Below are positions 1 to 61,303 of a stretch of 64,000 bases of DNA, in pieces. The stretch lies in the IMG/VR virus record IMGVR_UViG_3300036852_000709. One strand, 5' to 3'. A program made the translations under genes and the position numbers. Each line of letters opens with the position of its first letter. Within the stretch, counting starts at the first letter, position 1. Source of the DNA: an uncultured virus (IMG/VR IMGVR_UViG_3300036852_000709). Lineage: Duplodnaviria > Heunggongvirae > Uroviricota > Caudoviricetes. Under the pieces are notes generated by a model. That model searched no databases. It was given only the letters and a program-made list of their open reading frames with translations, and was not told where the DNA came from.

Positions 1-308
1 TGTTCATAAAAGACAAGAACGCCAGAGACGTCGTGCAAGCAACGTCTGTGGCGAAGCTCGCGCTCGGACTGCGCGGGGCGAAGGCGTTCAGCATATCCGG
101 CGAGGTCGACGGCATCATCTCGCACACGGGGCGCGTCTGGACGACGGGCACGATGGCCCGTGTCGTCATTCCAGACGAGCAGATCGATGAGCCCATGTTC
201 GTTTTCGAGCGGGTATTGATGCAGGACCGCGACGCCGGGCAACGAACGAAGATCCGGCTCATTCCAAAGAACGCCTATCAGATAGGCGACATGCCAGAGG
301 GCGGTTAG
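1..308 (+). CDS. Baseplate hub / Mu gp44-like tail protein, C-terminal part (gene starts before the window)
   Basis: Frame open from the window start (FIKDKNARD...). C-terminal pattern 'VDG...GRVWTTGTMARVVIPDEQIDEPMFVFERVL...G.RTKIRL' resembles Mu gp44; lies upstream of spike and wedge genes. Confidence 0.7.
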   Translation, partial: FIKDKNARDVVQATSVAKLALGLRGAKAFSISGEVDGIISHTGRVWTTGTMARVVIPDEQIDEPMFVFERVLMQDRDAGQRTKIRLIPKNAYQIGDMPEGG

Positions 309-526
309 TCCCACGACTGATAATCGATGTCCGCTTGGATCTCGGCTGTGTGCGAGTCGGCGTATTCCAACGCCGCGCCGATCTGCTCCTCCGTCAGGTG
401 CGGATAGACCGCCTTGATGCGTAGGTGCGCACGGCGGCACGTTTCAACGGCCCACACCGTGATCCTCGTGCCATCAATTCGCGCACGACCGCCGCATGTG
501 CCAGGCGTAGCGATAATATACACCAT
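305..526 (-). CDS. DUF433 family protein (winged-helix, antitoxin-like)
   Basis: Signature 'PGTCGGRARIDGTRITV...YPHLTEEQIGAALEY'. Confidence 0.85.
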   Translation of the reverse strand: MVYIIATPGTCGGRARIDGTRITVWAVETCRRAHLRIKAVYPHLTEEQIGAALEYADSHTAEIQADIDYQSWD

Positions 527-3904: not shown

Positions 3905-4575
3905 TCACCTCCGCTTGATGCCGCGACGGACGATGCGCCAATCGGAGCATCGGGGCATCCCCAATCAGCACCGAGCGCGCACAGCGTTGGAAGAATGGCC
4001 TCGAGCACGATCAGGCCACCAGGAAGCGGAGGCGGAACTGGTGAGCCGATAAGCGCCTTGATGATGTCGTCCGTGGTTAGTAGTTCGATCCGGTTAGCGT
4101 CGCCCTGATTGACCGACGTCTTGTCGAGCGCTTCGGCGGTTACTTGATCGGGCTCGAAACCAACGTCTGGCACACCGCGGCATGTTCCCCAGATGCCATT
4201 CGGGTTGGTCATGTCGTTCTGCTTTCGCGCACGAGAGGCTCGGTCATCTGCCTCCGCCTCGAAACACTGAAGATACGTGAGGGACGTTGCTCCCATACAC
4301 AGCGCGATATCCTCTGCAAGGACATAGAACGCAGTCCACCAATCATCAGACAGGCCGAATCCCTTGCACTCAATCTTGCCGATTTGCCTGCTCGTGCCCA
4401 ACCTTTCAAGGTATTGCCTCACGCGCTCGCGCAGGGCCCACTCCTGAAGCTTTTGCACCACATCGGGAGGCATCGCCTGTATTCGCGCGCGAAGGTCGTC
4501 CATGTCGCCACCGTCTGGCACGGAGCAGGCACACAAGCCGACGAGCATGGCGAGAGCGGCAACGAGTACCCTCAC
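3895..4575 (-). CDS. Lipoprotein, hypothetical
   Basis: Signal peptide with lipobox-like LCAC; several Cys. Confidence 0.6.
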   Translation of the reverse strand: MRVLVAALAMLVGLCACSVPDGGDMDDLRARIQAMPPDVVQKLQEWALRERVRQYLERLGTSRQIGKIECKGFGLSDDWWTAFYVLAEDIALCMGATSLTYLQCFEAEADDRASRARKQNDMTNPNGIWGTCRGVPDVGFEPDQVTAEALDKTSVNQGDANRIELLTTDDIIKALIGSPVPPPLPGGLIVLEAILPTLCALGADWGCPDAPIGASSVAASSGGDWQ

Positions 4576-13123: not shown

Positions 13124-15412
13124 ATGATTCGTAAACCATGGCTTATTGGGCTCGTCGCGGGCGCAGCGCTCACTGTGGTCACGTGCTCCGCGGCTACGTC
13201 GCTCGCTGCACCGTTGAAGGAGCGCGCTATGGTAGCTCCAACGCCGGCTATCTCACGTGCCTCCCATGTCAGCTCGTCATGGATCGAGATCACTCTGCCC
13301 GAAGACGCCTTCGATGAAGGCAATGTCAAGGATGTCGCGCGCTACGCCATTACGAGCACCAACGACGCCGACTTTACGGTAGCCGTTACGCCAATCGAAG
13401 TCCACCGCAGGTACTTCCCCGAGTCCGCCCCATACGACAAACTCGGAAGCGACCCGTGCAAGATCGTTGTCGCCTACCGGATCTTCCTGAAGCTGCCAGC
13501 CGCAAAGAAACTCAAGGATGGCAAGGCGTACAAGGTGACGGTCGACGCTGCCGTTGGCATCGCGGGGCCGTACACGTTCCAGTTTAATGGTGCTGCGCCG
13601 AACGATGCGGTCCATGCAAACCAGGTCGCCTACCTCCACGACGGCCCAAAGATCGCCTACCTCTCGGCGTGGACTGGCGAAGGCTCGGTCGACTTCGGCG
13701 GGATACCAAAGTTCAAGCTCGTCAGCATGGCGACCGGTCAGCCTGTGTTCGAGGGCCCCATTCACCTGGATGTGCTCGCCGCGAATGAGCCATGGTCAAA
13801 GAGCAACGTCTACTCGATGGACTTCTCGACGTTCGTGGCGGAGGGCACGTACCGGGTCTACGTTCCTACCGTCGGTTCATCTCGCCCGTTCGCGATCACG
13901 AAGCAGGCTTACAACACGATCGGGTATACTCTCATCCGCGGGCTCTCAATGCAACGCGATGGGGCGCACGGGCTCAACAGCCCCAGCGTGACGCACTGGA
14001 CACGGCCATCGGCGCACCTCGACGACGCGATCGTAGAGAGCACCGGCAAGCGCGCTGGCATCGTGGGCGGGCACATGGACGCGGGGGACAGGGGCAAGTA
14101 CTTTCACAACGTTGGCGACGTCGCGGCTGTGATGCTCACGGCGATGCAACTATTCCCCGTGCATGTCGAGGCGCTCAGCGAGTCGCTCGACCTACCCGAG
14201 TCGCAAAACGGCATGCCCGACTTTATCGATGAGGCTGTCTACGAGCTAGAACTGCTCCGCAAAGCCGTGATGAGCACGCCCAAGGATGGGACGCTGCCGT
14301 TTTACATTCGCCCGCAGAATCAGGACGGCAAGGGTGGCTACGAGATGAATCAGCCCCTCGCCGGCAAGAAGGACCGTAAACTATACGACGCGACGCAGGG
14401 GCCCAATCGATCGGAGACACTGTACGCGGCGGGCGCGCTCGCGATGGCCTACAACAACGCGCTGATCAAGCAGTACTTGCCAGCGGCGAAGTCCGACGCT
14501 TACCTTGCCGCTGCCAAGCGTGCGTTCTCGGGATACGTGAAGCATCGCAATGACGTCGCCTATTGGAAAGACGCGGGCTGGTACGACCCGTGGACGGCTG
14601 GACCGCAACCGTGGGCCGATGAGATGCTGGTCGCGGCGGTGAGCCTCTACCAAGCGACGGGAGACGCTGCATACATCCCGTGGATCAAGGGCGCGCTACC
14701 TGCGAACCTCGCGACGATGAAACATTGGGGCTGGCAGCTCACCGGGCCGTGGCTCCCAGCATTCGTTGCGCTTTACTCCGTCACACGCCCAGGTCTCGAG
14801 GCTGCTATCCCAGGCATCAAGGCAAAGGCGTACGCTGCGATCGTTGATTGGGGCGACTCGACAATGAAGCACGACGGCAAGGTATACCATGCGCCGTTCG
14901 GCTCACCACTCCCGACGCACGTGCAGAAGAACGTCGGATGGTTCTTCACCGGGGAGCAGATCGCATATCCGTTGATGGTGGCGTACGGCGTCACTAAAGA
15001 TGCGAAATACAGAACCGCGCTCATTAAGTCGTGGAATTACCTGCTCGGTACGAACCCGCTGAGCCGGTCATTCATCAGCGGCCTCGGCGATCCACAGCGA
15101 AGTCCGAGGTGGTTCGTGCACGAGATCAGCCACCTTCAGTATATGCTGTTCAAGACGAATCCGCAGACGGGATGGAGCGAGGCGATCCCTGGTATCCCGA
15201 GCGCGGACATTCAAAGCGGCGACTTTGACGGCTTCCTGTCGAACGCGTGGAACACGTCGCGCAAGGCGAAGACCTCCCCAGCGCTCGCCGATTACCCTGC
15301 GCTGTACCGCTACCACGACAGTTGGACAGTGAAGAACGAGTTTACCATCGACCGGCTGACACGCGGCGCGGTCTCGATTATACCGCTGGTCGCACTCCCC
15401 GCCGCACCATGA
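13124..15412 (+). CDS. Glycoside hydrolase family 9 (cellulase-like) with N-terminal Ig-like domain and signal peptide
   Basis: 'VHANQVAY', catalytic 'GGHMDAGDRGKY', 'NYLLGTNP..RSFISGLG', C-terminal 'YHD....NEFTI'. Confidence 0.85.
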   Translation: MIRKPWLIGLVAGAALTVVTCSAATSLAAPLKERAMVAPTPAISRASHVSSSWIEITLPEDAFDEGNVKDVARYAITSTNDADFTVAVTPIEVHRRYFPESAPYDKLGSDPCKIVVAYRIFLKLPAAKKLKDGKAYKVTVDAAVGIAGPYTFQFNGAAPNDAVHANQVAYLHDGPKIAYLSAWTGEGSVDFGGIPKFKLVSMATGQPVFEGPIHLDVLAANEPWSKSNVYSMDFSTFVAEGTYRVYVPTVGSSRPFAITKQAYNTIGYTLIRGLSMQRDGAHGLNSPSVTHWTRPSAHLDDAIVESTGKRAGIVGGHMDAGDRGKYFHNVGDVAAVMLTAMQLFPVHVEALSESLDLPESQNGMPDFIDEAVYELELLRKAVMSTPKDGTLPFYIRPQNQDGKGGYEMNQPLAGKKDRKLYDATQGPNRSETLYAAGALAMAYNNALIKQYLPAAKSDAYLAAAKRAFSGYVKHRNDVAYWKDAGWYDPWTAGPQPWADEMLVAAVSLYQATGDAAYIPWIKGALPANLATMKHWGWQLTGPWLPAFVALYSVTRPGLEAAIPGIKAKAYAAIVDWGDSTMKHDGKVYHAPFGSPLPTHVQKNVGWFFTGEQIAYPLMVAYGVTKDAKYRTALIKSWNYLLGTNPLSRSFISGLGDPQRSPRWFVHEISHLQYMLFKTNPQTGWSEAIPGIPSADIQSGDFDGFLSNAWNTSRKAKTSPALADYPALYRYHDSWTVKNEFTIDRLTRGAVSIIPLVALPAAP

Positions 15413-15853: not shown

Positions 15854-16362
15854 CTGACAACCAGATGGTTTCGGCTGACGTCAAGGCGGACCTCGCGAGC
15901 CGTGTTCCTCCGCCCGTGGCCGCTGTAGTAGTTCGCCTGTCCGCCGTAATGCGGGACGTGGCGCTCCGGCTCCTCGCTGCCTCGTGTAGGCTCCACAAAC
16001 CAGAGCGCGTCGAGGAAGGCGTCGTCCTGCCCGATGTGCCGTTGCATGAGCGCGTGGACGTCCAGCTACCAGACACGGACGCGCTGCTCTCGTGTGTTCC
16101 GCTCGGCTACATCGCCGCGCCTGGATCGCTAAGCATCTCGAGGCGCTACGTCGTGGCCCCACCGTTAGCCCACGGCGCGAGAACCAAAACCATCCTGTTC
16201 CGCAACGCGAGCGACTTCGATGTGAGGCTCTTCAACGTTGGCTCGAGCAACGATTTCGCCGTCGTATCGCCTGGGGACTACGCCTCGATCGCCTTCGATA
16301 AGACCACCAATCAATGGCTGTGCGGCACGAGCGGGAAGATGGAGACTACGGGCACCCGATAG
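15847..16362 (+). CDS. Hypothetical protein
   Basis: 171-aa ORF coupled to the upstream gene; beta-rich C-terminus. Confidence 0.5.
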   Translation: MVTDNQMVSADVKADLASRVPPPVAAVVVRLSAVMRDVALRLLAASCRLHKPERVEEGVVLPDVPLHERVDVQLPDTDALLSCVPLGYIAAPGSLSISRRYVVAPPLAHGARTKTILFRNASDFDVRLFNVGSSNDFAVVSPGDYASIAFDKTTNQWLCGTSGKMETTGTR

Positions 16363-16777
16363 TGAAGTGCCCCGCTGGACCGTCGTAGGTCATAACGAGC
16401 ATGCGCAAGAAGTCTCGCCCAAGGATCCCATCGTAATCGTTGGCCCCGTTCGGCAATGTCTGAATGGCCATCTGCTTGGCTGACTTCCTCGCGCCGTCTC
16501 CTTCGCCAAACGCGAGTATGCCGGTGAATGTCTGCACATCGACCTTCCCATCAATCCCAAACGCCACGAAGCGATCGGTGTGCGCGAATGGCGTGGTCTG
16601 CTGCGCGATCGTCGGGCGAATCGCGGACATCGTTGCACCAGTGTCGACCAGAAACTTGACCGTCATGGGCTCTGAGAACGAACCGTCCGCTTGCATCGCC
16701 GAGAATTCGACGTCCACAACCACGCCATACTCTTGAAGAGACGCGGCGCCTGGGTACCGATCAGCGACGTCGATCAT
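16346..16777 (-). CDS. Retropepsin-like (clan AA) aspartic protease, copy 1
   Basis: 'FLVDTGATMSAI' and 'GILGRDFL'; GAGG RBS before ATG 16777. Confidence 0.85.
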   Translation of the reverse strand: MIDVADRYPGAASLQEYGVVVDVEFSAMQADGSFSEPMTVKFLVDTGATMSAIRPTIAQQTTPFAHTDRFVAFGIDGKVDVQTFTGILAFGEGDGARKSAKQMAIQTLPNGANDYDGILGRDFLRMLVMTYDGPAGHFTIGCP

Positions 16778-17061
16778 GTCTTCCTCACCACGCGCGGCTC
16801 GACCCTCGTGATCACACATGCCTTGTTGGGACCGACCACGCGCACCCGATCGAACGCGGCCACCATCTCGTCGTCGTAGGTGGCCACGACCTTCCCGTCC
16901 GTGAACATGACCACCTTGCCCGCGTACGCAGGGTCGGCGAGCAGGGCAGGATGTGCATCCACGTAGCGATTGAACTCCTCGTGAAACGCACGCAACTCAG
17001 CCTTGTATTTCGGGCTCGCGGTGGGAAACGTGCTCTCGATTCTTTGGTCAATGCTGTCCAT
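16774..17061 (-). CDS. DUF5678-like small protein, copy 1
   Basis: 'LLADPAYAGKVVMFTDGKVVATYDD...A'; coupled to the protease. Confidence 0.6.
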   Translation of the reverse strand: MDSIDQRIESTFPTASPKYKAELRAFHEEFNRYVDAHPALLADPAYAGKVVMFTDGKVVATYDDEMVAAFDRVRVVGPNKACVITRVEPRVVRKT

Positions 17062-17111: not shown

Positions 17112-17534
17112 CTACGGCATCGTGATCGTGTAACGCCCGTTCGGCCCGTCGTACAAGAGCACCAGCCTGCGCAGCACGTCGCGGCCAATGATGCCGTCGT
17201 AGTCATTCTCTCCGTTGGGAAGAGTATGAATCGTCATCTGCCCGCCGATGGTCTGATCGCCGCAGCGGATAATCCCATAGAACGACGGCACTTTCACCGT
17301 TCCGTCGATGCCCGTCGCTTGCAATTTCTGCTCGTACAGAGGCGGCTTGAGTTGGTCCGCGATCGACGGCCGGATCGCGCACATGGTCGACCCCGTGTCC
17401 ACGAAAAACTTGACCCGCACAACGGGCGATGGTTCACCGTCGATGGGGAATCGTTCCAGATCAAGATCCACTAAGACGCCCGAGTATTGCAGTTCCGACG
17501 CACCTGGTGATCGGTCTGCGAGGACGACGCTCAT
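17112..17534 (-). CDS. Retropepsin-like aspartic protease, copy 2
   Basis: 'FFVDTGSTMCAI' and 'GIIGRDVL'; clear paralogue of copy 1. Confidence 0.85.
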   Translation of the reverse strand: MSVVLADRSPGASELQYSGVLVDLDLERFPIDGEPSPVVRVKFFVDTGSTMCAIRPSIADQLKPPLYEQKLQATGIDGTVKVPSFYGIIRCGDQTIGGQMTIHTLPNGENDYDGIIGRDVLRRLVLLYDGPNGRYTITMP

Positions 17535-17818
17535 ATCTTCACCGGCTCGCCGTCGCCGACTCTTGTGATGACAACCCCGTCGTGTGTTCCAACGACGCGG
17601 ATGACGTCCTCCGCTGCGGAGCAGAAGTCGTCGTAGGTACCGCAGACCTTGCCCCCGTGAAAGATGATGTATTTGCGGGCGAGTTCTGGCTGAGCAGCGA
17701 TCGTCGGATAGGCGTCCACGTACGCGTTCCAGCCCTCGCATCCGGCTCGCAGGTGCGCGCGATACTTGGCGTCCGCGGTTGGGTGCAGCCTGTTAATTCT
17801 CTCTTCAATTGTGTCCAT
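17531..17818 (-). CDS. DUF5678-like small protein, copy 2
   Basis: 95 aa, paralogue of 16774-17061; AGGAGG RBS. Confidence 0.6.
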   Translation of the reverse strand: MDTIEERINRLHPTADAKYRAHLRAGCEGWNAYVDAYPTIAAQPELARKYIIFHGGKVCGTYDDFCSAAEDVIRVVGTHDGVVITRVGDGEPVKI

Positions 17819-43607: not shown

Positions 43608-44855
43608 TCGCCGCACAACGTCTGCCCATGGCGTCTCCTCATAGTCTTCTCGCACCAGGCCATCCCACATCGCAAAGTGCTTATCGCAGACGGGCTCGCC
43701 CCACCCGCCGTTCACGATCTCATCGGTTCGTGTCGCGATCCTTAGGCAATCGAGCGCCCACACCTTGTGCCCGCCGCTACCGGATACCCACGTCCCAAGG
43801 CAGCGCGGCAACGATTCCGTGAGGGCGCAGAGAGCAATCGCGGCGCCAGCGAGTTCGGCGATATCTGGGTCCGCATTCCATGCCGCATGCTCCCTTATGG
43901 CCGACAGGTTGATCTTCACTTGTCCCATTCGCAATCGATCTCCACCTCGAGGCTCGCATCTCGCGTCCACTCGCCCGCTTCACCGCGCCAGAATTGGAGC
44001 ACGCGCCGCGGCACGCTGTTCATCGTAGGACCAGAGGGACAGCAATCAACATTCGGCGGGTCGCCGTAGTGGATCTCGCCTGACCTGATGTCATCCGCTA
44101 GCGCTGCGCCCACGCGTCCAACAACGATGTCAAGCGCGCTCACCGACATGGCCACGTCAAACGGGCGCCTGCAGTCCTGACAGGCGATTCGAAGAAGGCA
44201 GCACTCGCGCGCGTAGATATCCGCCGTGTCGTGCGGCGTGAACTCACAATATCGAGGTACCGCGTTCTCGTCCCACCAGATGGGAGGCTCCGCGATCTTG
44301 GAGCGGATGTCGTTGTAATGGTGGTTCATTGAACCTTTTCGGCTGCCGGGACGGGCTCCCACGCGCCGCCAAGCTGCTCAGCAAAACACAATATGGCGTT
44401 TAGCGCGCACGACTCGTCCCATCCGTGGGCCGACACCGTGCGGCCATTCGCGTCGAATCCGTATCGAGTCGAGCTAGTTTTACCGCAAGCACCGCAAACG
44501 TAGACCTGGCCATCCGCGGCGTAATCCGTGCCTGAATTCATAATTCAATCTTTCTCGGGATGAAGTCCGTGCGCGAGTCGCATAGCTCGCCGGCATGGCC
44601 GAGTCGATTTGCCTCGGCGAGGATCTGGCGGAGGTGATTGAGCGATCCGGGCTCGTCGCACCACCAGTCGACGCTGTTAGCCCACCTGTCGAACGTGTGC
44701 TCCCATCCGATGTGAACGACGGTCCACGAGTACCGCAGCCGCAGGCCCATGCTTGGGATGCGGGCATAGCCACATTCACCGCCGCCGATGTCCTTGTTGT
44801 CGTGGATCGAGCCGTCAATCCGCGCGCCTAGTTGCTCGAGCCATTGTTCAAGCAT
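43596..44855 (-). CDS. Four small hypothetical genes, several Cys-rich, downstream of the structured RNA region
   Basis: 44538-44855 (RBS GAAGGGGG), 44326-44541, 43916-44329, 43596-43928. Confidence 0.55.
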
Positions 44856-44870
44856 CAATTCCCCCTTCGT

Positions 44871-44945
44871 CGGCTCGGCGGGAGTCGAACCCGCAAACAC
44901 TTCCCTGTCGAGGGAGGCCCGTGCCAACTTGGGCTTACGTTCACC
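44871..44945 (-). tRNA. Degenerate tRNA-like element (4-nt central loop, poorly paired acceptor)
   Basis: D-arm GCCC/GGGC; TCCCT-CGAC-AGGGA; T-arm GCGGG-TTCGACT-CCCGC. Confidence 0.5.
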
Positions 44946-45146
44946 TTGGCACCTGTCAAGCATGTGGCTCGGTGCCATAGCCTTGCTCCAGGTAATTCTG
45001 GCTCCGGGCAAGATCAACTCGCGCGAAGTCGTTACGCCTCGTGCACATGGCACGTGCGCTATCCGCTTCGCCCGTCCTGCAGAACGGACCACCTGCGAGG
45101 TGCGCGTTTCTCTGTCCCGTCGGATCTTCCCGATGGGGATAATTCG

Positions 45147-45220
45147 CGGGGCGACCGTATGGAATCGAACCATATCCGAGCCACTTGCGGCGGCTCTGCA
45201 CGCCATCGTTACCGGTCGCC
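45147..45220 (-). tRNA. tRNA-like element with 8-bp G-1:C73 acceptor and atypical anticodon arm (GCA if read as a 7-nt loop)
   Basis: GGCGACCG/CGGTCGCC; GAGCCGC-CGCAA-GTGGCTC; T-arm TATGG-TTCGATT-CCATA; weak D-arm; ends CCG. Confidence 0.55.
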
Positions 45221-45447
45221 TTAGCAACATCTCTCGCCCCCGTGGCACCACACCATCTCTTCTCCACAGGCGCTTGAGCGTATCACTTGCTGACGGGTAC
45301 GATGGTTGATCCGCCAACCCGGAGATTAAGGTTCCGCCCACTCCACTTTGCCCCGTTTCGAACCGGAACCACCCGCGGCGGTGTACTCACATCGCGCCGA
45401 GCCTTATCAGGACTCTTCCGGTTATCAGCCGGGGATCACGATGTGAA

Positions 45448-45574
45448 TGGGGCAATCGCCTGGGCTCGAACCAGGATCCGTGTTGCGCCACCGCGCCGAC
45501 GAGGTACCTCTATCGTACGCGCGAAGCGCAAGTCCAGCTCAACGCTGGTGCACTACCATTGTGCTACGATCGCC
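45448..45574 (-). tRNA. tRNA-like element on a His-type scaffold with a 5-nt anticodon loop and a 58-nt variable region
   Basis: GGCGATCG-TA-GCAC-AATGGTA-GTGC-A-CCAGC-GTTGA-GCTGG-(58 nt)-CCTGG-TTCGAGC-CCAGG-CGATTGCC-CCA. Confidence 0.75.
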
Positions 45575-46095
45575 ATTAAGCCGCGGGACCTCACTGATTT
45601 TAAATCAGTTCAGATGCGGCACCCATCCTGACATCCGCCCAACGGTTGCCCGTCGCTCGGAGCCGAGGCGCGCGATTCACTACAGCGGCTCTGTACATTA
45701 TGTCCGCCAAATCGCGCACCCCGTAGGGTCCCCTGCCGATTTGCGGCAAGCCCGCTCGTGAACCTTTCGATCCGCAGGAGGCGTCACCTGTGGTACTTCC
45801 CAACATGACCGGTGACCCGTCGACACTACCCGATTCGCACGGGCTCGCCTCTTTGCTTGCTTTACGCTTCGTGAGGTCGCAACCAGGTCCCGCCCTGGCA
45901 TCGTCCGGATGTTCCGCCCCGGTCGGCGTTGTGCGCGATTCGCACGCGCTCGGGAGATGTGTATACGGCGCGCACTTGGTCACTCAGGATCGCCCTGAGA
46001 TTTATTGACGGCGTGGCGCACATACTCCTCGCAACAGGTTTTATCGATCCAGGCAAACGTCCCCAGGCGCTGGGGTCAGCGCCGTTGGTATCAGG

Positions 46096-46123
46096 AACAT
46101 AACCCATCTATTGGGCACGTCAA
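46096..46123 (-). promoter_or_regulatory. Promoter TTGACG-N16-TATGTT upstream of the structured RNA region
   Basis: Matches the recurring phage promoter architecture (TGGGT before the -10). Confidence 0.7.
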
Positions 46124-49100
46124 TGGTCATCGTCCTCGATCGGATAGTTCGCGAGCGCTTCCAACTCGCCGATGGTCATTCTGGAGCAAGGCGGTATTCC
46201 GCGCGCGGTCTCCATCGCAAGGACGTCGCCAAATTCGTCAGGCGTGATGAGCCGTCTCGTGCACCCAACCCACGCGTCGACATCAAGCGCGGCACCCTGG
46301 CAGAGATACTCGTAGGCGATGCGTAGCCAATTGGACGCTGACGACGCCAAGACGGGCAATGACGTTGCCCGCTCGACATGTGCGCGATGATGCCGCTCAG
46401 CCCATTCGATGGCGTCGTCGGCGTACACTGGAGCGACCATGCGAATTGTTGTATGAAGCCGGTCTCGTTCTCTAAGTTCCTTAGACACGGCTTGCATTCG
46501 CGCGTGATACAAATCGGTTATGGTGTAAGCAGACCAGAGGCATGGTTCGACGCCAAGCGCTCAGCGTCTGCCACGCTGCGACAATGCGGGTTATTGGCGC
46601 CAAAATCACGCGTGAACACGGCGGCCCGCTTTGTTCGGAACGGCCCAATCACGGCGCCGAAGGGATGTCCGTGTGACTCTGCGGTGGGCAGTGCATCAGA
46701 TGTGAAAATCGAGCGCGCGCCGCTCGCCAGTCCGACGAAAAATCTACAGGTCATTGCGGCTCTTCCTCGTGCCCGTCTTGCTGATTAATCGGCCCGCCGT
46801 GTCGCGCTCGGTGCGCTCAGACGTGCCGTCGGAGTATCCAACCCAGGACCTGTAGATAACAGGTCGTCGCGGGCGAAGGTAAGCCACGCCGCATAGGAAC
46901 GCCCATTCCATACCCGGCGGAGGCGCAGGCAGGATGGTCATCGCTCTGCCGTCCGTTCGTAAGCCCCGCGCCCACAGCGCTTCCAGTAGTCCGCGGCGGA
47001 ATCGTAAACCCTCGTTGCTCGTCGTTGTCCGTCAGCGCTCAGGTGATCCACTGGCGGCATCGGCTTCGCCCACAGTGCCGCCTCGACGGCGGCGACGAGC
47101 GTATCCGGGGACGGGAACGGCATGTCGTACGTCTCGTGAAACGTGCGACCGATCGCGCGCGTGCTTATGTCCGCCATGCGATTCGGCCCGTTGTCGACTG
47201 CGCACACGAAGTAGTCCACGTTTGGATCGTAGGCTACGCACAGGTACAATCGCTCGTGCTTGAGGTATCGACCAACGTAGTGCGCGATTCGCAGGTTCAT
47301 TTTGCCACCTTAACCACGGCATCGCTCTTCGCCACGGGCTCGTAACCCTCATCGACCAACGCAAGCGAATACCCCAACGCTCTCAGAATTCTCGCCACCG
47401 TCTCTGGACGAGCTTCTCCGTGCATCGGGCTCAGTGCCCTCGATATGTTCGCCTGGTCCACACCAGAGCGCGCGGCGAGGGCATCCTGCGTCAGTTCAAG
47501 ATCGACATCGAGGCGAGAGGCGTAGGCGATGCGGAGGAGAGCCTTGAGCGACACGGAGGGCGGCAAGTCGGTTGGCTCCCAGCGAAGCCCGCATGGCGTG
47601 CACCATTGTTCGTACCCGAGCGGCGCGCCGAATTTTGTCACGCGCCGAGTCTCGTTCGAGGAGCAGCGCGGGCATTGAGCGTGGTGTTCTTGCCGGCTCA
47701 CGTCGGCTCGGTCCATCGCACTGGCAACGCGATCCTCGGATGTCTGTGCTCGGCGATCTTCGTAGCGTCGGAATATGAGGCGATGTCTTGCATAGCGATG
47801 GGCTGGTTCAGTACCCGCGCAACCGCACATGCTTCACGATGTAGCGCTCCTCCGAAGCGGACCACGCGATGTCGTACTTGTCAGTCAGTCGATTTCCCAT
47901 CCCACACCTCGAAGTAATGGTCTCGCGGCACAGGGCCCTCGATCGCGAAGTTTTCAGGATGCGTCCAACCGGACAGACACGATGAGCACACGGCGGTCTC
48001 CTTCGCATCGTCCTTGAACAGCGGGATCCCGCACGGACGGACCTCCCATTCGTGGACGTCTGACCTCGTAAGATCGCCAGCCGCCATATCCAGCGTGCCG
48101 TGCTTCACGAGGCAGCATCGGAGCACGCGGCATCCATGAGGAATGAGCCGCGGCTTTATGCTCGCCAGCCATCGCTCTCCATCGGCGTTGCCACCCGGAC
48201 CAAGGCGACCGTAATCCTCCACCTCGACGCGCTCGGTTTTCCTGGCCAGGCGCTTGGCGGTGGCCACGTCCGCGCCATGCACGAACACGGATCCTTGGCG
48301 CTCGATCTGATCGAACAAGGCCCGCTCCCTTGCGGTCAACGCGCGCATCGTTCCTCCGAGTCACTGCGGCCGATGACCTTCCACATGTCGGCGGATATGC
48401 CCAACGGCATTCCGTAGCGCTGCGAAACTTGCCTCCTCGCGCGTGCGAGGACTGACTCATCCTCCTCATCTGAATCGCAGTTCACGTTGACGATGCCGCT
48501 GTATTGCCCGATGTCGTATTTGACCGTCGCGATCATCCCGTCCTCCTACGCATGAACATCTGCAAGTCGAATGCTGCGAGACCGCCAAGTACCGTCATAT
48601 CGCCAACGCTCCGCGGGGCATCATACTCGGCACCTACGTAATGCAAGAATCTCATGACCTGATCGTCGGACGCGCGGACGAACACCACGTGGTCACCGTC
48701 CGTCCATGCATCGCATGTCACCATATACGGATGCACGTCGCGCCCGCGAACGATGTGTAACAGCGCTGGCTCAATGCCAATTTCGCCGAGCGCGTGGATC
48801 TGTTCATCAGTGAATGCCATGGTCGTCTCTCCTCACATCTTGAATTCGCGGTCGTCGTCGTACCAGCGGAGGATGGCCTTGCCGTCGACGGTCGCGGTGT
48901 GGTAATTCGTCGCGTGCCCGCGGAACATCGTGCACCTGTAGCCGTCGTGCTCAGCGCCGCAGTATGGGCTGACGTCGCGTTTGGTCTCGTTCTCGGCTTC
49001 GCGGCCCAGACGTTCCCCATCTCGCTTGGTCTTCATGGGCCCACCGTGCCTCGAAGGAGGCCAACGATTTCGTTGTCGGGTTTTCCCGCGAGCAGCCTTG

Positions 49101-51227: not shown

Positions 51228-52487
51228 ATGCCCGCGAAACGCACAGGGTCGATCAGGCGAAGGGCCGACCGATGGCAGGCCAGGGTCTACGTTGGCGACG
51301 GACGGCAAAGCCACGTCAACCTACCCACGTGGATGACCGAGGACCAAGCGAGGGAGCGAACTGGCTTGCTCGCCGAGGTTGCACATCAGGTCATCGCGGC
51401 GGGGCAAGGCACGTTTCTGTCCGATGTCCTTTCTGCCGTTGCCGAGACACGAGTCGTTGGCAAGACGCTCAGCCAGGTTGATGCGCTGTGCACGCGCGGG
51501 GTGGAGCACGTCAAGCCTGCCGCCGTCGTGACGTTCGGCGACGTCGCGGAGCAGTGGACATCGGGCGTCCTCGCGAGGAGATATCCCGACCACGTTCGCG
51601 AGAAGCCGGGGAGCGTCAAACAGGACATCTATCGCCTGAATGCACACGTTTTGCCGCTTGTCAAGAACGTGCCTGTCTCGTCGTTCACGCTTGATCATGC
51701 GGACGCTGTGATGCGTGCGCTGACGCCGATGTCTGCGGGCTCGCGGCGGCAAGTCGCGCTCCTCCTTCATCGAGTACTCGCGCTTAGTGTGTTCCCTATG
51801 CGGCTGCGCGAGGCCAACCCTATCCCGCCAAAGTGGGCCCCTCGACCAGCGGGCGAGATCGCCAAGCAATGGCTCTACCCCGACGAGGACGCGATGCTCC
51901 TCGGTTGCACGGCCATCCCGCTCGGGTACCGTGTTCTGTACGGCTTCCTTGCGCGCGAGGGGCCGCGCGTATCCGAAGCGCTATCGTTGACCACGGCCGA
52001 TGTGGACCTAAAGCGCGGAGTCTTGACGCTGGATGTGAACAAGACTGACGATCCGCGAGCGTGGGTTCTCGACGTCGGCGTAGGGAAAGCGCTCGAGGCA
52101 TGGCTCAAAATTTGGCCTGGGCCGTCGCTGTTCAACGTGGGCGTCGAGCTGAACGAGGGACACCTCGCGAAGCGGTTCCGTGAGCACCTCGCGCTCGCAG
52201 GCACCACGCGCCCGCAACTATTCGCCGAGCGGACAGAGAACCGCATTCCGATCCGCGCGCACGATCTGCGAGCGACGTTCGTAACGCTCAGCCTTGCGCA
52301 CGGGAAGAGCGAGACGTGGGTTGCCGATCGCACGGGGCATCGCTCGTCGCAGATGATCAACAAGTACAGGCGTGCGGCGAGGACGGCGGCGGAGCTTGGG
52401 CTGCCTGCGCTTACGCTGATGAATGAGGCGATACCTGAACTGAGGGAGCGGCGGCTCAGGCTCGTGTCGCACCAGAACTCTGGTTGA
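51228..52487 (+). CDS. int: Tyrosine recombinase / integrase
   Basis: Catalytic 'GPRVSEAL', 'HDLR', 'TGH.SSQMINKY'; ATG 6 nt after TAGGGT (leaderless). Confidence 0.93.
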   Translation: MPAKRTGSIRRRADRWQARVYVGDGRQSHVNLPTWMTEDQARERTGLLAEVAHQVIAAGQGTFLSDVLSAVAETRVVGKTLSQVDALCTRGVEHVKPAAVVTFGDVAEQWTSGVLARRYPDHVREKPGSVKQDIYRLNAHVLPLVKNVPVSSFTLDHADAVMRALTPMSAGSRRQVALLLHRVLALSVFPMRLREANPIPPKWAPRPAGEIAKQWLYPDEDAMLLGCTAIPLGYRVLYGFLAREGPRVSEALSLTTADVDLKRGVLTLDVNKTDDPRAWVLDVGVGKALEAWLKIWPGPSLFNVGVELNEGHLAKRFREHLALAGTTRPQLFAERTENRIPIRAHDLRATFVTLSLAHGKSETWVADRTGHRSSQMINKYRRAARTAAELGLPALTLMNEAIPELRERRLRLVSHQNSG

Positions 52488-57485: not shown

Positions 57486-58346
57486 TCACCACAGGTCAAT
57501 CACGCTTCCCATGTCTGTTATCCTGCGGATCATTGCCTCACCGTATCGCTCGTGCAGCTCGGCCATCCTCGCACCGCTGGTCACGATCATCGGCCTCTTT
57601 GCGCCGTACCTGTATCGCTCGTAGATGACATCGCGCACGACCTGAGGGTCGAACTTCGTTGCTTCGTACGCGATCTCGTCGAGTATCAACAGCGACGCAC
57701 ACTTCGCTTCGCGAATAATACGGGGCTCCGCGTCGCTCCTCGCCCGGTCAGAGCGAGCCCTGGCCAGGTCGATTGCCGATACGAACCGCAGCTTCGAGGC
57801 GAATGCAAACCCCGTGGCGTCAACCTTGCCCGCCTCCGCTTGGTCGAGAATGCGATGGCCAATGGCAACCGCGCACGATGTCTTGCCCATTGACGTGTCG
57901 CCGAGGATGAGTACGTTCCCGTCCGCTCGCTGCCACCCAGCGGATCCAATGATCCGCCTTGCAAAGCCGTCCTTCCCCGCCGCTAGTCCGCCGCGGACCG
58001 CAGCCCGATATGGCTTCGTGCCAGCCCTCAGGAGGTCCGTCGCGCCCTCCGGCGAAAGACTCGCCCGCGCCTCGGCGAGATGTGCCGCACGAATCGACTT
58101 CGCATGTGCGTTGCCGCATTCGTCGCACCACACTCCGCGCTTTTTCTGGGGCTTCCCGCAGCCGCCAGTGCACTCAAGCACGCTTGGCGGCAGGCCCTCA
58201 CACGGCGAGGCCGGCTCGACAAGCGATGCTATCGGGCTTGGCTGCTGGATTTCAATGCCAACCGCCACGGCCGCGCGCTCCCGCATTCGAACTTGCGCCG
58301 CCTCGAGTATGGCCATGTCATCCGGGGTTAGATCATTCAGGCTCAT
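57486..58346 (-). CDS. DnaC / IstB-like AAA+ ATPase (helicase loader)
   Basis: Walker A 'GDTSMGKT', Walker B 'LLILDEI', 'ERY....PMIVTS', 'YG....RRI'; follows the initiator gene. Confidence 0.85.
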   Translation of the reverse strand: MSLNDLTPDDMAILEAAQVRMRERAAVAVGIEIQQPSPIASLVEPASPCEGLPPSVLECTGGCGKPQKKRGVWCDECGNAHAKSIRAAHLAEARASLSPEGATDLLRAGTKPYRAAVRGGLAAGKDGFARRIIGSAGWQRADGNVLILGDTSMGKTSCAVAIGHRILDQAEAGKVDATGFAFASKLRFVSAIDLARARSDRARSDAEPRIIREAKCASLLILDEIAYEATKFDPQVVRDVIYERYRYGAKRPMIVTSGARMAELHERYGEAMIRRITDMGSVIDLW

Positions 58347-59247
58347 CGGCGATACCGCCCTCCCATAACGGCGATTTGCGCGAATGGTCGTAGCCGTTGC
58401 TACGCTGGACCGGCGGACCTTGCGCCCGCTGTGCACCACCCGAATACCTGCCGACACGCCGAATCCAGGTCCTTGCAGCCGCATCCCAATCTGCAAACCG
58501 ATTACCATTGGCCGTGTGATGATCGCGGAACGTTGCAAGTTCAGCGTCTACGGCGCGGCGGTCAAGCCCTTTCTCGACCCCGATGGCATACAGGTCTGCC
58601 TTTGGCTTCCAGGATTCTGGGAAATCGGATAGTTGTCGGCGTGGTCTCCGCGGCGGTGCCGCCGTGGTATCAGGGACCAGCGCCAGTTGGGTTGGTTTGC
58701 CCCCCGGGGGGACCAAGGGGGGATCCTCTCCTATACTCTTCTCTTCTCTTATCGGATCTATCCTGCGCGTCCATGAAGATCCTGACGTTGTGGCTGAATG
58801 ATTACCGCAACTTACCTCAACTTTCGTTTCCGAGTCGTTACCGGCTCGTGATCGGTTCGTTGCTGACTCGTTACTGGTTCGTTGCTGACTCGTTACTGGT
58901 TCGTTGCTGACTCGTTCACGGCTCGTTGTGTGATGTTGCTGACGCTCTTTCCGCCTTTGCGCCGTCGAAAAGTTGGCCACGACGATACTGTTGTCGTCGA
59001 CCTTGAGGTACCCGTCCTCCAAAAGCATTGGAACAAAGCCGCGTAGGAGCCTACGATCGCTCGGCGTAGCTCCGCATACTCTTGCGATGGCGAGCCATGG
59101 CTCGTCGCCGCAGAGAGGTAACCGGCCATCTTCATCGACGAACTTGAGCAATTCAGCGGCCAATCCACGAACCATCAAGGGCAGTCGAGCGAATGTGCCA
59201 AGCTCCCGAACGAAAAGTTTGACCCACGGCTCGCGGTCCCACCTCAT
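58333..59247 (-). CDS. Phage replication initiator protein
   Basis: Internal tandem repeats; C-terminal DnaT-like 'F.DHH..NG....DWDAAARTWIRR'; upstream of the DnaC-like gene. Confidence 0.75.
   Translation of the reverse strand: MRWDREPWVKLFVRELGTFARLPLMVRGLAAELLKFVDEDGRLPLCGDEPWLAIARVCGATPSDRRLLRGFVPMLLEDGYLKVDDNSIVVANFSTAQRRKERQQHHTTSRERVSNEPVTSQQRTSNESATNRSRAGNDSETKVEVSCGNHSATTSGSSWTRRIDPIREEKSIGEDPPLVPPGGKPTQLALVPDTTAAPPRRPRRQLSDFPESWKPKADLYAIGVEKGLDRRAVDAELATFRDHHTANGNRFADWDAAARTWIRRVGRYSGGAQRAQGPPVQRSNGYDHSRKSPLWEGGIADEPE
58824..58928. repeat. Ten 11-bp-period repeats (TCGT core), candidate iterons / origin
   Basis: TCGT at 58824, 58835, 58846, 58857, 58868, 58879, 58890, 58901, 58912, 58923. 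Confidence 0.75.
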
Positions 59248-59570
59248 GTTACATCCGCAACCGCCACATCACGCGGCATTGCCCTCTTGAGAGCGTTGAT
59301 CACTGTCACGCAATCAACCCCGAAGATGTCGCCTATCTCCCATAGCGAATACGAGCGCCCTGGAAACGCGCGCACTGCCGCCATCATCTCATGTCGTGCG
59401 GCGATGATGTTTTGATATCGGACGCGGCTCACCACGGTCTCAATGTTTTCGCCGCGACGCTTGGCGATCGCCTCGCACATATCAAACAGTTCCGCGCGCT
59501 TAAGCGCTTCGATCACCTGCTTAGGGGTGCGCTTGATGGCGCGACGAGAATGACGAGAAGTGTCGCTCAA
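59244..59570 (-). CDS. Stand-alone DnaA C-terminal (domain IV) HTH protein
   Basis: 'VSR.R...IIAARHEMM...R.....SLWEIGDIFGVDCVTVINAL'. Confidence 0.7.
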   Translation of the reverse strand: MSDTSRHSRRAIKRTPKQVIEALKRAELFDMCEAIAKRRGENIETVVSRVRYQNIIAARHEMMAAVRAFPGRSYSLWEIGDIFGVDCVTVINALKRAMPRDVAVADVT

Positions 59571-60667
59571 GGCGCTGACCTGTACCCCAGCATGTCGATC
59601 AACCGATCGATAGGGACCGACGCGAAGTACTCCACGAAAGAGTTTACTCGCCCAGAGCGCACCGCGAACAGTGCCGCAGGGCACCTAGTCTTTACAGCGC
59701 GCAGCGCAAAGTCCTTCTGTGTCTCTATAGATCGGAGTGGCTCATACTCGACGGACGTGGTTTCACATAGTGAAAATAACCGCGAGCGGGCATCTTCAAG
59801 GAGTGAGCGCAACTCTGGGAAAGCAGCAAAGACCTCCGTCTCCTCACCTCGCCGAGCAATGTCAACAATAGCTCGTTGACTCATCCCTTCTCTTGCGTGA
59901 TGAAGCGCCACATATCCTGGATGTTTGACCTTGACCCTATTCCACTGGCCATCGACCACGACGTACCCCTCTTGAGAGAGTGGCGACATGGTGTCAAAAG
60001 ATCTTGCGATGTCGGCAAATGACGATAGTGGGAACTCGCGAACAATCTCCACGGCGACATCGGCGCCGATATAAATACGCGCATGATCAGCGCTTAAAAA
60101 TTCGCCAGTTGTTCTCACGCGGGCGCCTAGCAGGACTACGCGCGGGCGCTCGTGCACCACAACAACCCTGTTGAGTGGGCCCATAAGCTCGAACAGGAAG
60201 CACAGCGACGACTTCGAGCAACAGAGTTCGCCGCGGTCGGGCCCGAGAGTGTTCCAGAAGTAATCCGAAAACACAACCCCGCTACCATTAATGTCACCAC
60301 CGGCATCTGGTGTACCAGTGGTCGCGACCCTCCACGCACCATCGTAATGGTACAGCGTGCAAAGCGACCCGTCTAGCTTCTCCTGAACCCGAGCTGCACT
60401 CCAGTCTATCGAAGCCGCGCCTGGCTCACCGTAGTTGAAAAACTTATCGAACCCTCGAGCGACAACGCTCCAGTCTTCCTCCTCATCGAGGATAAGACCT
60501 CGACACTCGCGGACGATCTGCTTTTCGAACGGTGACAGAAGTTGGTTGTACTTGAAAAGCAAAAGATTCGGATAGGCCGGATGGCGCTTTGCCCCAACGC
60601 CAAGATCCACGAGAAGTCGCTCTGGCGTGCCACCGGCTCGAAGGTATGCCTGAATGGCGAGCGTCAT
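59567..60667 (-). CDS. T4 Rnl1-like RNA ligase
   Basis: 'FKY', 'RECRGLILD', 'FDKFFNYGE', motif I 'EKLDGS', 'FEL', 'EGYVV', 'RVKVK..GY'. Confidence 0.88.
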   Translation of the reverse strand: MTLAIQAYLRAGGTPERLLVDLGVGAKRHPAYPNLLLFKYNQLLSPFEKQIVRECRGLILDEEEDWSVVARGFDKFFNYGEPGAASIDWSAARVQEKLDGSLCTLYHYDGAWRVATTGTPDAGGDINGSGVVFSDYFWNTLGPDRGELCCSKSSLCFLFELMGPLNRVVVVHERPRVVLLGARVRTTGEFLSADHARIYIGADVAVEIVREFPLSSFADIARSFDTMSPLSQEGYVVVDGQWNRVKVKHPGYVALHHAREGMSQRAIVDIARRGEETEVFAAFPELRSLLEDARSRLFSLCETTSVEYEPLRSIETQKDFALRAVKTRCPAALFAVRSGRVNSFVEYFASVPIDRLIDMLGYRSAP

Positions 60668-61303
60668 TGCAGGATCTCCGCCGCTTTGCACAAATACGCG
60701 GCGACCCTGCCCATGTCGAGGTTGGCGCACCCATCCCCCTCGTCGCGAAGGCGACCCCCCGCGTACGACGGACAGGAGCCAACGCCCGTGGGGGGAGCGC
60801 AAACCCAGCCCGCCAACACTCCAGCATGTGCCTGTCCCTCGCCGTCGAGCCAAAGCCGAACACCCATCACACCCTCTAAATCAGAAAGCCTGAACAAACT
60901 TACCGGTTGACGCCACACCGATCGGATGCATGTTGGTCACACATCCGATGGAGACGCCGTTAGCCCAGAGACATCCGACGCCGAGCCCGCTCGAGGTGCT
61001 CCGCGATGATCGCCGCAGCCGGGTTTGGCGCATCGTCGCCGCGCGGCAGGAGCCCAAGCGAGGTCATGAGCGCCCGCACGGCGGGATCGCTCTCGGGGTT
61101 CTTCCTGGGCGCCGCGTGAGGCAGTTCGAGGTAGCGGCCATCCTCCACGCGAAGCGACGCAGGCTCGGCGTGCAGCCATGCCAGAACCCGTTCTGTAGGG
61201 ATGCCGCGGTCTGCACAGCGAGAGATGATCTCGTCTTCATGCAGGCCGAACGGCCCCGACGCGCGAAGCTCGCCGATGACGACGGAGGCGAGGTCGATCG
61301 GGA

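Follow-up and report, generated by a model that had tools for sequence, protein, structure and literature searches.

What is a phage doing with two copies of the tRNA-Ile(GAU) anticodon loop, side by side on a small RNA fold? The question is posed by a 60-nt stretch on the minus strand of a 64,000-nt window, the whole length of DNA that we analysed. The window is temperate-phage-like and comes from soil. It encodes a tyrosine integrase (51228-52487), along with a baseplate J protein, a DnaC-like loader, RusA and several HTH regulators. The 60 nt, which we refer to as the junction, sit amid non-coding DNA peppered with tRNA-like pieces. Our preferred reading is that the junction is a tRNA-Ile-derived, non-decoding structured RNA module that may offer anticodon-arm mimics as a competitor or decoy, and we put its probability at about 0.35. 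The best explanation of its surroundings is that the junction would be one unit of a cluster, roughly 0.7-1.25 kb long, in an accessory or early region of a temperate soil phage. Several other readings have to be weighed on the way to this one, and at least one of them is a serious contender.

The letters of the junction (45446-45387, minus strand) are exactly as first described, and the sequence, strand and two-hairpin fold of the original prediction could all be reproduced there. A closing helix is built from a 5' strand at 45446-45437, TCACATCGTG, which is followed by ATCC, and a 3' strand at 45396-45387, CGCGATGTGA, which is preceded by GG. Between the two strands stand hairpin 1 (CCGG, 45432-45429; CTGATAA, 45428-45422; CCGG, 45421-45418; then AA) and hairpin 2 (GAGTC, 45415-45411; CTGATAA, 45410-45404; GGCTC, 45403-45399), all on the minus strand. 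Across both strands of the 64-kb window the heptamer CTGATAA occurs six times, and two of those copies are the loops of these hairpins. The closing stem had been drawn with 10 bp, and it is present at that length with a single U.G pair; in RNAfold it reaches 12 bp, one of the added bases being the final A of the CCA that lies upstream. The three-way junction of closing helix and two hairpins, delineated from the sequence, from RNAfold and from a count of such junctions, occupies 45387..45449.

The minimum free energy (MFE) of the junction is -28.3 kcal/mol, with a z-score of -3.56, and just one of 200 shuffled versions is as stable in RNAfold. When 401 nt are folded as context, no pair of the closing stem or of hairpin 1 falls below a probability of 0.96, and hairpin 1 itself reaches 0.98. 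The strand matters too. Folding of the minus strand is favoured over that of the plus by 4.1 kcal/mol (-28.3 versus -24.2 kcal/mol) because U.G pairs on the minus strand turn into A.C mismatches on the plus, and one such pair is found in hairpin 2. This stretch of DNA encodes a three-way-junction fold, and the fold is biased to the minus strand. Hairpin 2 is the troublesome partner. In the energy model, the two inner pairs of its 7-nt-loop register have a probability of 0.05-0.07, and 0.92 goes to a slipped register in which a U is bulged and the loop has 4 nt (a GAUA tetraloop). Hairpin 2 may thus lack a 7-nt loop, which leaves it uncertain whether the junction is bivalent. The expectation of two identical 7-nt loops stands as far as the letters go, both being CTGATAA, and gives way in the predicted fold of hairpin 2.

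Could so small a structure be an accident? One can imagine an inverted repeat arising by chance in GC-rich non-coding DNA that happens to contain a repeated 7-mer, and some of the numbers are friendly to this idea. We counted all junctions in which two 7-nt-loop hairpins are enclosed by a helix of at least 8 bp. The window has six of these, and the mean for 40 shuffled windows is 6.7, so shuffled windows are equally rich in them. By our own arithmetic, 1.26 kb should contain about two cases of a 7-mer repeated within 30 nt, and the larger surroundings of the junction fold with modest z-scores of -0.9 to -2.3. What shuffling does not deliver is identical loops: they occurred in none of 269 shuffled junctions, and the closing helix here was the longest. 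Moreover, the stretch of about 1.26 kb around the junction holds two hairpin pairs with the same loop, CUGAUAA twice and UGCGAAU twice. When the stretch was shuffled, one such pair appeared in 58 of 2000 versions and two pairs in none. The double hairpin exceeds chance expectation. That 20 nt of loop and flanks match a real anticodon arm, and that four T arms surround the junction, speak against accident as well, an explanation we consider very improbable.

The anticodon arm in question belongs to Pseudomonas phage PHB09 (OK040171.1), which came up when GenBank phages were searched, first with a query of 256 nt and then with one of 30 nt. Together with its flanks, hairpin 1 (45433-45414, minus strand; CCCGG-CTGATAA-CCGG-AAGA) is identical in 20 out of 20 positions to the anticodon arm of that phage's tRNA-Ile(GAU). 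The matched stretch carries no annotation in the PHB09 record; ARAGORN calls the tRNA-Ile(GAU) at 16195-16268, and the 20 identical nucleotides span anticodon stem, loop, stem and the first bases of the variable loop. Hairpin 1 has the 5-bp stem of a tRNA-Ile(GAU) arm, including the C27.A43 position, and the loop C32-U33-G34-A35-U36-A37-A38. Given the 20/20 identity, it is indistinguishable from a genuine anticodon arm of the tRNA-Ile type. The 30-nt query matched 186 GenBank phage records in all, and a tRNA-Ile, tRNA-Met or tRNA-Arg was annotated under 11 of the 30 matches listed.

Hairpin 2 (45399..45415, minus strand, 17 nt) also has the makings of a tRNA-Ile(GAU) arm by its sequence, with the predicted register slipped. 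The equivalent query for hairpin 2 matched nine GenBank phage records, every time within a protein gene. In 185,579 GTDB genomes, its 17-mer has 15 exact matches, 14 of them in coding or other sequence. The one remaining match lies in a tRNA-Ile(GAU) called by ARAGORN in a metagenome-assembled genome of a rumen Firmicute, where the 17-mer is the anticodon arm; there is thus a real tRNA in which these letters can make a 7-nt anticodon loop, uncertain as their register is in the junction. Going by these matches, the stem of hairpin 2 is not that of a tRNA-Ile from any likely soil host, a point against the mimic reading. Between them, the PHB09 and Firmicute arms bear out the proposal that the loops are of the tRNA-Ile(GAU) type. 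The two loops are identical in all seven positions, and the stems have nothing in common. Unrelated stems make a recent duplication unlikely, which leaves either selection on the loop or two separate origins from tRNA-Ile. What was originally seen as a constant loop on variable stems, suggestive of selection, is at present a pattern of two seemingly paralogous hairpins in one genome.

Immediately upstream of the junction is a module that is tRNA-shaped in its own right. This is TL1 (45448..45574, minus strand), which goes uncalled by ARAGORN. The Rfam tRNA model (RF00005) scores 40.5 bits on it at 45573-45451, against a gathering score of 29; TL1 escaped Rfam when gathering mode was run with the fast filters. 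Its four stems are intact, all 21 pairs of the cloverleaf are kept and the cloverleaf is the MFE structure. What it presents at the business end is a 5-nt loop, GUUGA, instead of a 7-nt anticodon loop (there is an alternative of 7 nt, with G33), and a well-paired hairpin of 55 nt is inserted in the variable region. TL1 therefore has neither the 7-nt anticodon loop with U33 nor the variable region of normal length that would make it a tRNA. An archaeal-type bulge-helix-bulge intron in the insertion was considered and rejected by eye on the predicted fold. At the other end of TL1, G-1 (45574) stands opposite C73 (45451), making an 8-bp acceptor helix before the CCA. A G-1 opposite C73, with an acceptor helix of 8 bp, is the hallmark of bacterial tRNA-His; the loop of TL1 differs from the His anticodon.

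The encoded CCA of TL1 is found at 45450-45448, followed by one spacer T and then the junction. It had been claimed that the junction begins directly after the CCA of a tRNA-like module, and this is right to within that single base. The claim came with the thought that processing could release the junction. In the model worked out for E. coli, the RNase E cut reportedly falls 1-3 nt past the CCA (PMC2190699). The bases 1-3 nt past the CCA of TL1 are predicted to be paired, which speaks against a simple release of the junction.

TL1 has company. The non-coding stretch that contains all the modules (44856..46110, minus strand, about 1.25 kb) is flanked by minus-strand genes and shows no codon-position GC signal: GC3-GC2 lies between -0.06 and +0.06 for all nine ORFs over the stretch, compared with 0.18-0.30 for three flanking genes, and on this GC phase a coding reading of 44856..46110 was rejected. 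Near its start is a promoter-like TTGACG-16-TATGTT (46096..46123, minus strand), recognized by its match to the consensus. ARAGORN at its default settings finds no tRNA gene in the 64-kb window. There are, all the same, four T arms of the GGTTCGA type within 600 nt on the minus strand, at 45475, 45367, 45174 and 44894, and no other TTCGA-type arm with five of five pairs on that strand of the 64 kb. The one that lies 20 nt downstream of the junction is a T-arm-like hairpin with four of five pairs (TCCGG-TTCGAAA-CGGGG, 45351..45367, minus strand).

Further downstream comes TL3 (45148..45220, minus strand), tRNA-like, in which both the acceptor stem of 7 bp and the T arm are perfect, the D arm is weak and the tail is CCG. 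ARAGORN finds it at a relaxed threshold only, in a register in which the loop contains GCA and is without U33; its Rfam scores, 23.7 bits for tRNA-Sec and 22.2 bits for mascRNA-menRNA, are both under gathering. The last of the series is TL4 (44868..44937, minus strand), a T arm (GCGGG-TTCGACT-CCCGC, 44894-44878) in a short tRNA-like context, which ends just ahead of the ribosome-binding site of the next gene. In Rfam it has a tmRNA match, over the 17 nt of the T arm, and a weak match to the Tymo tRNA-like family. A Terracidiphilus genome, which we reached via a chance match, has a tmRNA whose T arm is identical to that of TL4 in 19 of 19 positions. Beyond the T arm the 3' sequence of TL4 diverges from tmRNA, and TL4 is thus neither a tmRNA 3' end nor an attP core. 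An attP or tmRNA-integration site was rejected for this module, the strand after the T arm having no continuation into a tmRNA end. A tmRNA reading was rejected too: the match is to the T arm only, and ARAGORN -m gave permuted candidates at the 80% threshold only, with implausible tags.

The 5' half of the stretch has its own pair, two T-loop-like hairpins on the minus strand that share the loop UGCGAAU (45949-45933, GCGCG/CGCGC; 45844-45828, GCCCG/CGGGU). Their 5' sides are identical in 16 of 17 positions, and a change in the 3' arm compensates for the lone difference. No Rfam family falls on this half of the stretch, nor was there any Rfam match on the junction (45320-45460) at E<=10. Over the junction ARAGORN yields two weak tRNA-Ile cloverleaves that are mutually inconsistent, and these at the 70% threshold only. 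The junction has neither a covariance-model match nor a default ARAGORN call that would make it a member of the tRNA family (RF00005). The four T arms and the tRNA-shaped modules with disabled anticodon loops, of which there are at least two, nonetheless suggest that the junction is one module of a tRNA-derived, non-decoding cluster. It is more aptly described as part of such a set, none of whose members is able to decode, than as a spacer.

Whether this cluster does anything is another matter. It may be a relic, what decay and rearrangement have left of a phage tRNA array of Gln/His-, Ile- and Cys-like genes, in which the junction is functionless tRNA-Ile(GAU) debris, its anticodon arm duplicated and its D arm lost. 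Much of what has been set out above would follow. ARAGORN makes no tRNA call in the window, every tRNA-like module has a non-canonical loop or lacks an arm, and hairpin 1 looks descended from a genuine tRNA-Ile arm. The two inconsistent tRNA-Ile cloverleaves seen over the junction with relaxed ARAGORN and the degenerate T arm 20 nt downstream fit this picture, and the junction is unique, as expected of an accident particular to one lineage. The structures do not look decayed, however. Random decay should disrupt stems, and TL1 retains 21 of 21 cloverleaf pairs and a well-paired 55-nt arm; the stem change in the UGCGAAU hairpins has been compensated. The junction is closed by a perfect helix of 10-12 bp that is absent from any tRNA, and hairpins that share a loop in 7 of 7 positions and nothing in their stems are unlike a recent duplication. 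We take the relic seriously because none of the modules is sound as a tRNA and because the junction is unique. It is doubtful, and yet nearly as likely as the mimic module.

The layout of the junction also recalls phage antisense RNAs. The C4 RNA of P1 and P7 and the CI RNA of P4, which are immunity RNAs matured by RNase P, both have a terminal helix and two loop-presenting hairpins, and YUNR is a U-turn motif. C4 antisense RNA is reportedly a substrate of RNase P, in work by Hartmann et al. from 1995. If the junction were a regulator of this type, its CUGA loops, which fit YUNR, would start pairing with UUAUCAG-type targets in phage or host mRNA. The resemblance takes in the temperate-phage origin, the terminal helix with two loop-presenting hairpins and the neighbouring tRNA-like RNase P signal, and HTH regulators are encoded upstream. 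The loops of the junction are identical, whereas C4 and CI have two different antisense boxes. Nor is there anything nearby to pair with: TTATCAG, TTATCA and TATCAG are all absent from the minus strand between 42 and 49 kb, and paired TTATC targets occur nowhere on the minus strand of the window. Rfam, with the C4 family included, has no match on the junction at E<=10, and lacking both that match and loop-complementary boxes at 42-49 kb, the junction does not belong to the C4 family. The absence of nearby targets and of an Rfam match makes an antisense regulator unlikely to our minds. Judged by its letters, the junction is placed outside the tRNA, C4 and tmRNA families alike.

A second way to do without decoys is to do without the RNA. 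The two TTATCAG copies, 18 bp apart, might be sites at which a phage protein (an integrase arm-binding domain or a regulator) binds DNA, or the hairpins might form in single-stranded DNA. Some neighbouring features have a bearing here. Located 20 nt upstream of TL1 is a perfect 17-bp palindrome, ACTGATTTAAAATCAGT (45593-45609), which has ATCAG in common with the TTATCAG repeats and could be an operator; counted from the repeats it is 170 bp upstream. A third CTGATA occurs at the promoter-like site, so that three of the nine minus-strand CTGATA in the 64 kb fall within 1.27 kb, and an integrase is encoded in the window. The third CTGATA is non-significant on its own (about 0.14 expected by our own arithmetic) and the integrase gene is 5.7 kb away. 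More to the point, direct repeats do not explain why each copy should have its own, different inverted repeat or why a closing helix of 10-12 bp should enclose them both, and the G.T pairs favour a minus-strand transcript. We think it quite improbable that the locus works as DNA.

How does the junction compare with RNAs that phages and bacteria are known to make? Set beside the tRNA-Ile(GAU) of PHB09, it has the 20/20 identical anticodon arm and lacks acceptor, D and T arms in tRNA register and an Rfam tRNA match; the arm is duplicated and enclosed by the helix of 10-12 bp. The tRNA cluster of phage T4 includes stable RNAs that are not tRNAs (species 1 and 2, or RNA C and D), which have tRNA-like features, are co-processed with the tRNAs and have no known function. 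Like these, the junction would be a small structured RNA co-located with phage tRNA-type elements; unlike it, the T4 RNAs sit among functional tRNAs, and there are no functional tRNA modules here. A piece of RNA next to the CCA end of a tRNA precursor also has a precedent in 3'ETS-leuZ, a small RNA derived from a tRNA spacer which is reportedly an Hfq-dependent base-pairing sponge (10.1101/2021.04.25.441314). Release of the piece is putative in our case, and RNAs of the leuZ type act by base pairing whereas the junction would mimic an anticodon arm. A last comparison is with the phage tRNAs that reportedly resist host anticodon nucleases or make good the tRNAs cut by them (PMC10264068, PMC11555353), tRNA-type molecules aimed, as the junction may be, at tRNA-targeting defence; those are full, decoding tRNAs and the junction is an isolated arm, or two, that does not decode.

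We looked widely for relatives of the junction, and that none came up in IMG/VR, GenBank phages, GTDB genomes or 26 related metagenome loci counts against the mimic reading. A blastn search with 44400-46400 had no match among 50,697 GenBank phages. The protein encoded directly downstream of the stretch has no viral relative and is alone among 5.8 billion proteins in matching itself; the one encoded directly upstream has no viral relative either. A third nearby gene, P0003, has relatives, 33-57% identical, at one locus from a virus and 26 from metagenomes. At these 27 loci the non-coding stretch is absent (no blastn match at E<=1), as are the T arms and the other neighbouring genes. One IMG/VR/JGI phage has its P0003 homologue in two pieces, residues 1-38 and 37-136 being about 1.5 kb apart (2350-2463 and 4001-4315 in locus L001; 3350-3463 and 5001-5315 in L023), which suggests an inserted element or an intron in the gene.

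The original prediction had called for a pattern search, stem-CTGATAA-stem twice inside a closing helix, and no second example came to light in IMG/VR. In a complete scan for double CTGATAA at a spacing of 10-12, none of 147 matches (100 stretches) had both stems of at least 4 bp, and with wide spacing the same was true of the 159 matches listed (119 stretches); these scans covered variants with G or C at the positions next to the stem. The two-UGCGAAU pattern had no match in IMG/VR. The 17-mer of a single UGCGAAU hairpin matched there 11 times, about the number expected by chance, with a 5-bp stem in one case and extended similarity in none. In 401 genomes from the phylum of the Terracidiphilus genome mentioned above, there were matches of 26-43 nt only, at chance level, in 11 genomes. 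The sequencing runs that contain the DNA are two soil-metagenome DNA runs, possibly its source, with no RNA run among them; their contigs are identical to the window and so offer no variation in which covariation might show. What we have is one example, from a metagenomic phage that is itself an orphan. It is a lead rather than a result.

The rest of the window provides some context. It encodes an Rnl1-type RNA ligase (PF09511, phrog_562; 59567-60853, minus strand) adjoining the replication genes, which we count as context for the mimic reading. No polynucleotide kinase/phosphatase was detected beside the ligase. A look through the window for anticodon nucleases, polynucleotide kinases and tRNA-modifying enzymes brought up none, which counts against the mimic reading. 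Other features caught our eye in passing. Within the replication-initiator gene (58333-59247, minus strand) there are about ten head-to-tail 11-bp repeats, TCGTTnCnGnn (58824-58933), probably origin iterons. In the tail and baseplate region, a 762-aa protein (13124-15412) combines glycoside hydrolase family 9 and CelD N-terminal domains; it may be a tail-borne depolymerase of the cellulose type. Two adjacent genes (16346-16819 and 17112-17741, minus strand) encode proteins like retroviral-type aspartyl proteases (PF13975, PF13650). A DUF433 protein is encoded at 305-526 (minus strand), 45 kb away from the junction; members of the DUF433 family are antitoxin-like partners of PIN-type toxins.

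How might an anticodon-arm mimic work? The cluster would be transcribed leftwards with the flanking genes, either from the promoter-like sequence at 46123-46096 or by read-through. Its tRNA-like modules would draw the host's tRNA-processing enzymes, RNase P and those for 3' trimming, and the junction would last as a stable RNA, either by itself or with TL1 attached. In that form it could present one or two mimics of the tRNA-Ile anticodon arm to a factor that reads such arms, for which it would then be a competitor or decoy. The most plausible factor would be a nuclease or toxin aimed at anticodon loops; a t6A enzyme or IleRS is a less plausible one. There are enzymes with such tastes. The anticodon loop of tRNA-Ile(GAU) is a secondary target of HepS (PMC13043305), and CdiA-CT EC536 cuts it between C32 and U33 (PMC11724271). 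Phage tRNAs have been proposed to counter tRNA-cutting defences (PMC10264068, PMC11555353).

The mimic reading can be pushed further, and at this point we are speculating. TL1 might be a handle that recruits the processing enzymes, and the junction a bivalent decoy for an oligomeric HEPN/HepS-like anticodon-loop nuclease or another arm reader, which would spare the host's tRNA-Ile, on which the phage depends. The neighbouring modules with disabled loops might be further members of an RNA-based anti-defence cassette. As a complete scheme this is a long shot, unlikely to be right in all its parts.

There is much current research on defences that cut tRNAs and on phage tRNAs as a counter to them. 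The phage counter-measures that we know of so far are whole, decoding tRNAs or repair enzymes. An anticodon arm by itself, offered twice as bait, would if true be a new and very cheap principle of counter-defence. It would also, if true, explain what the odd tRNA-like pieces are for that recur in the tRNA regions of phages.
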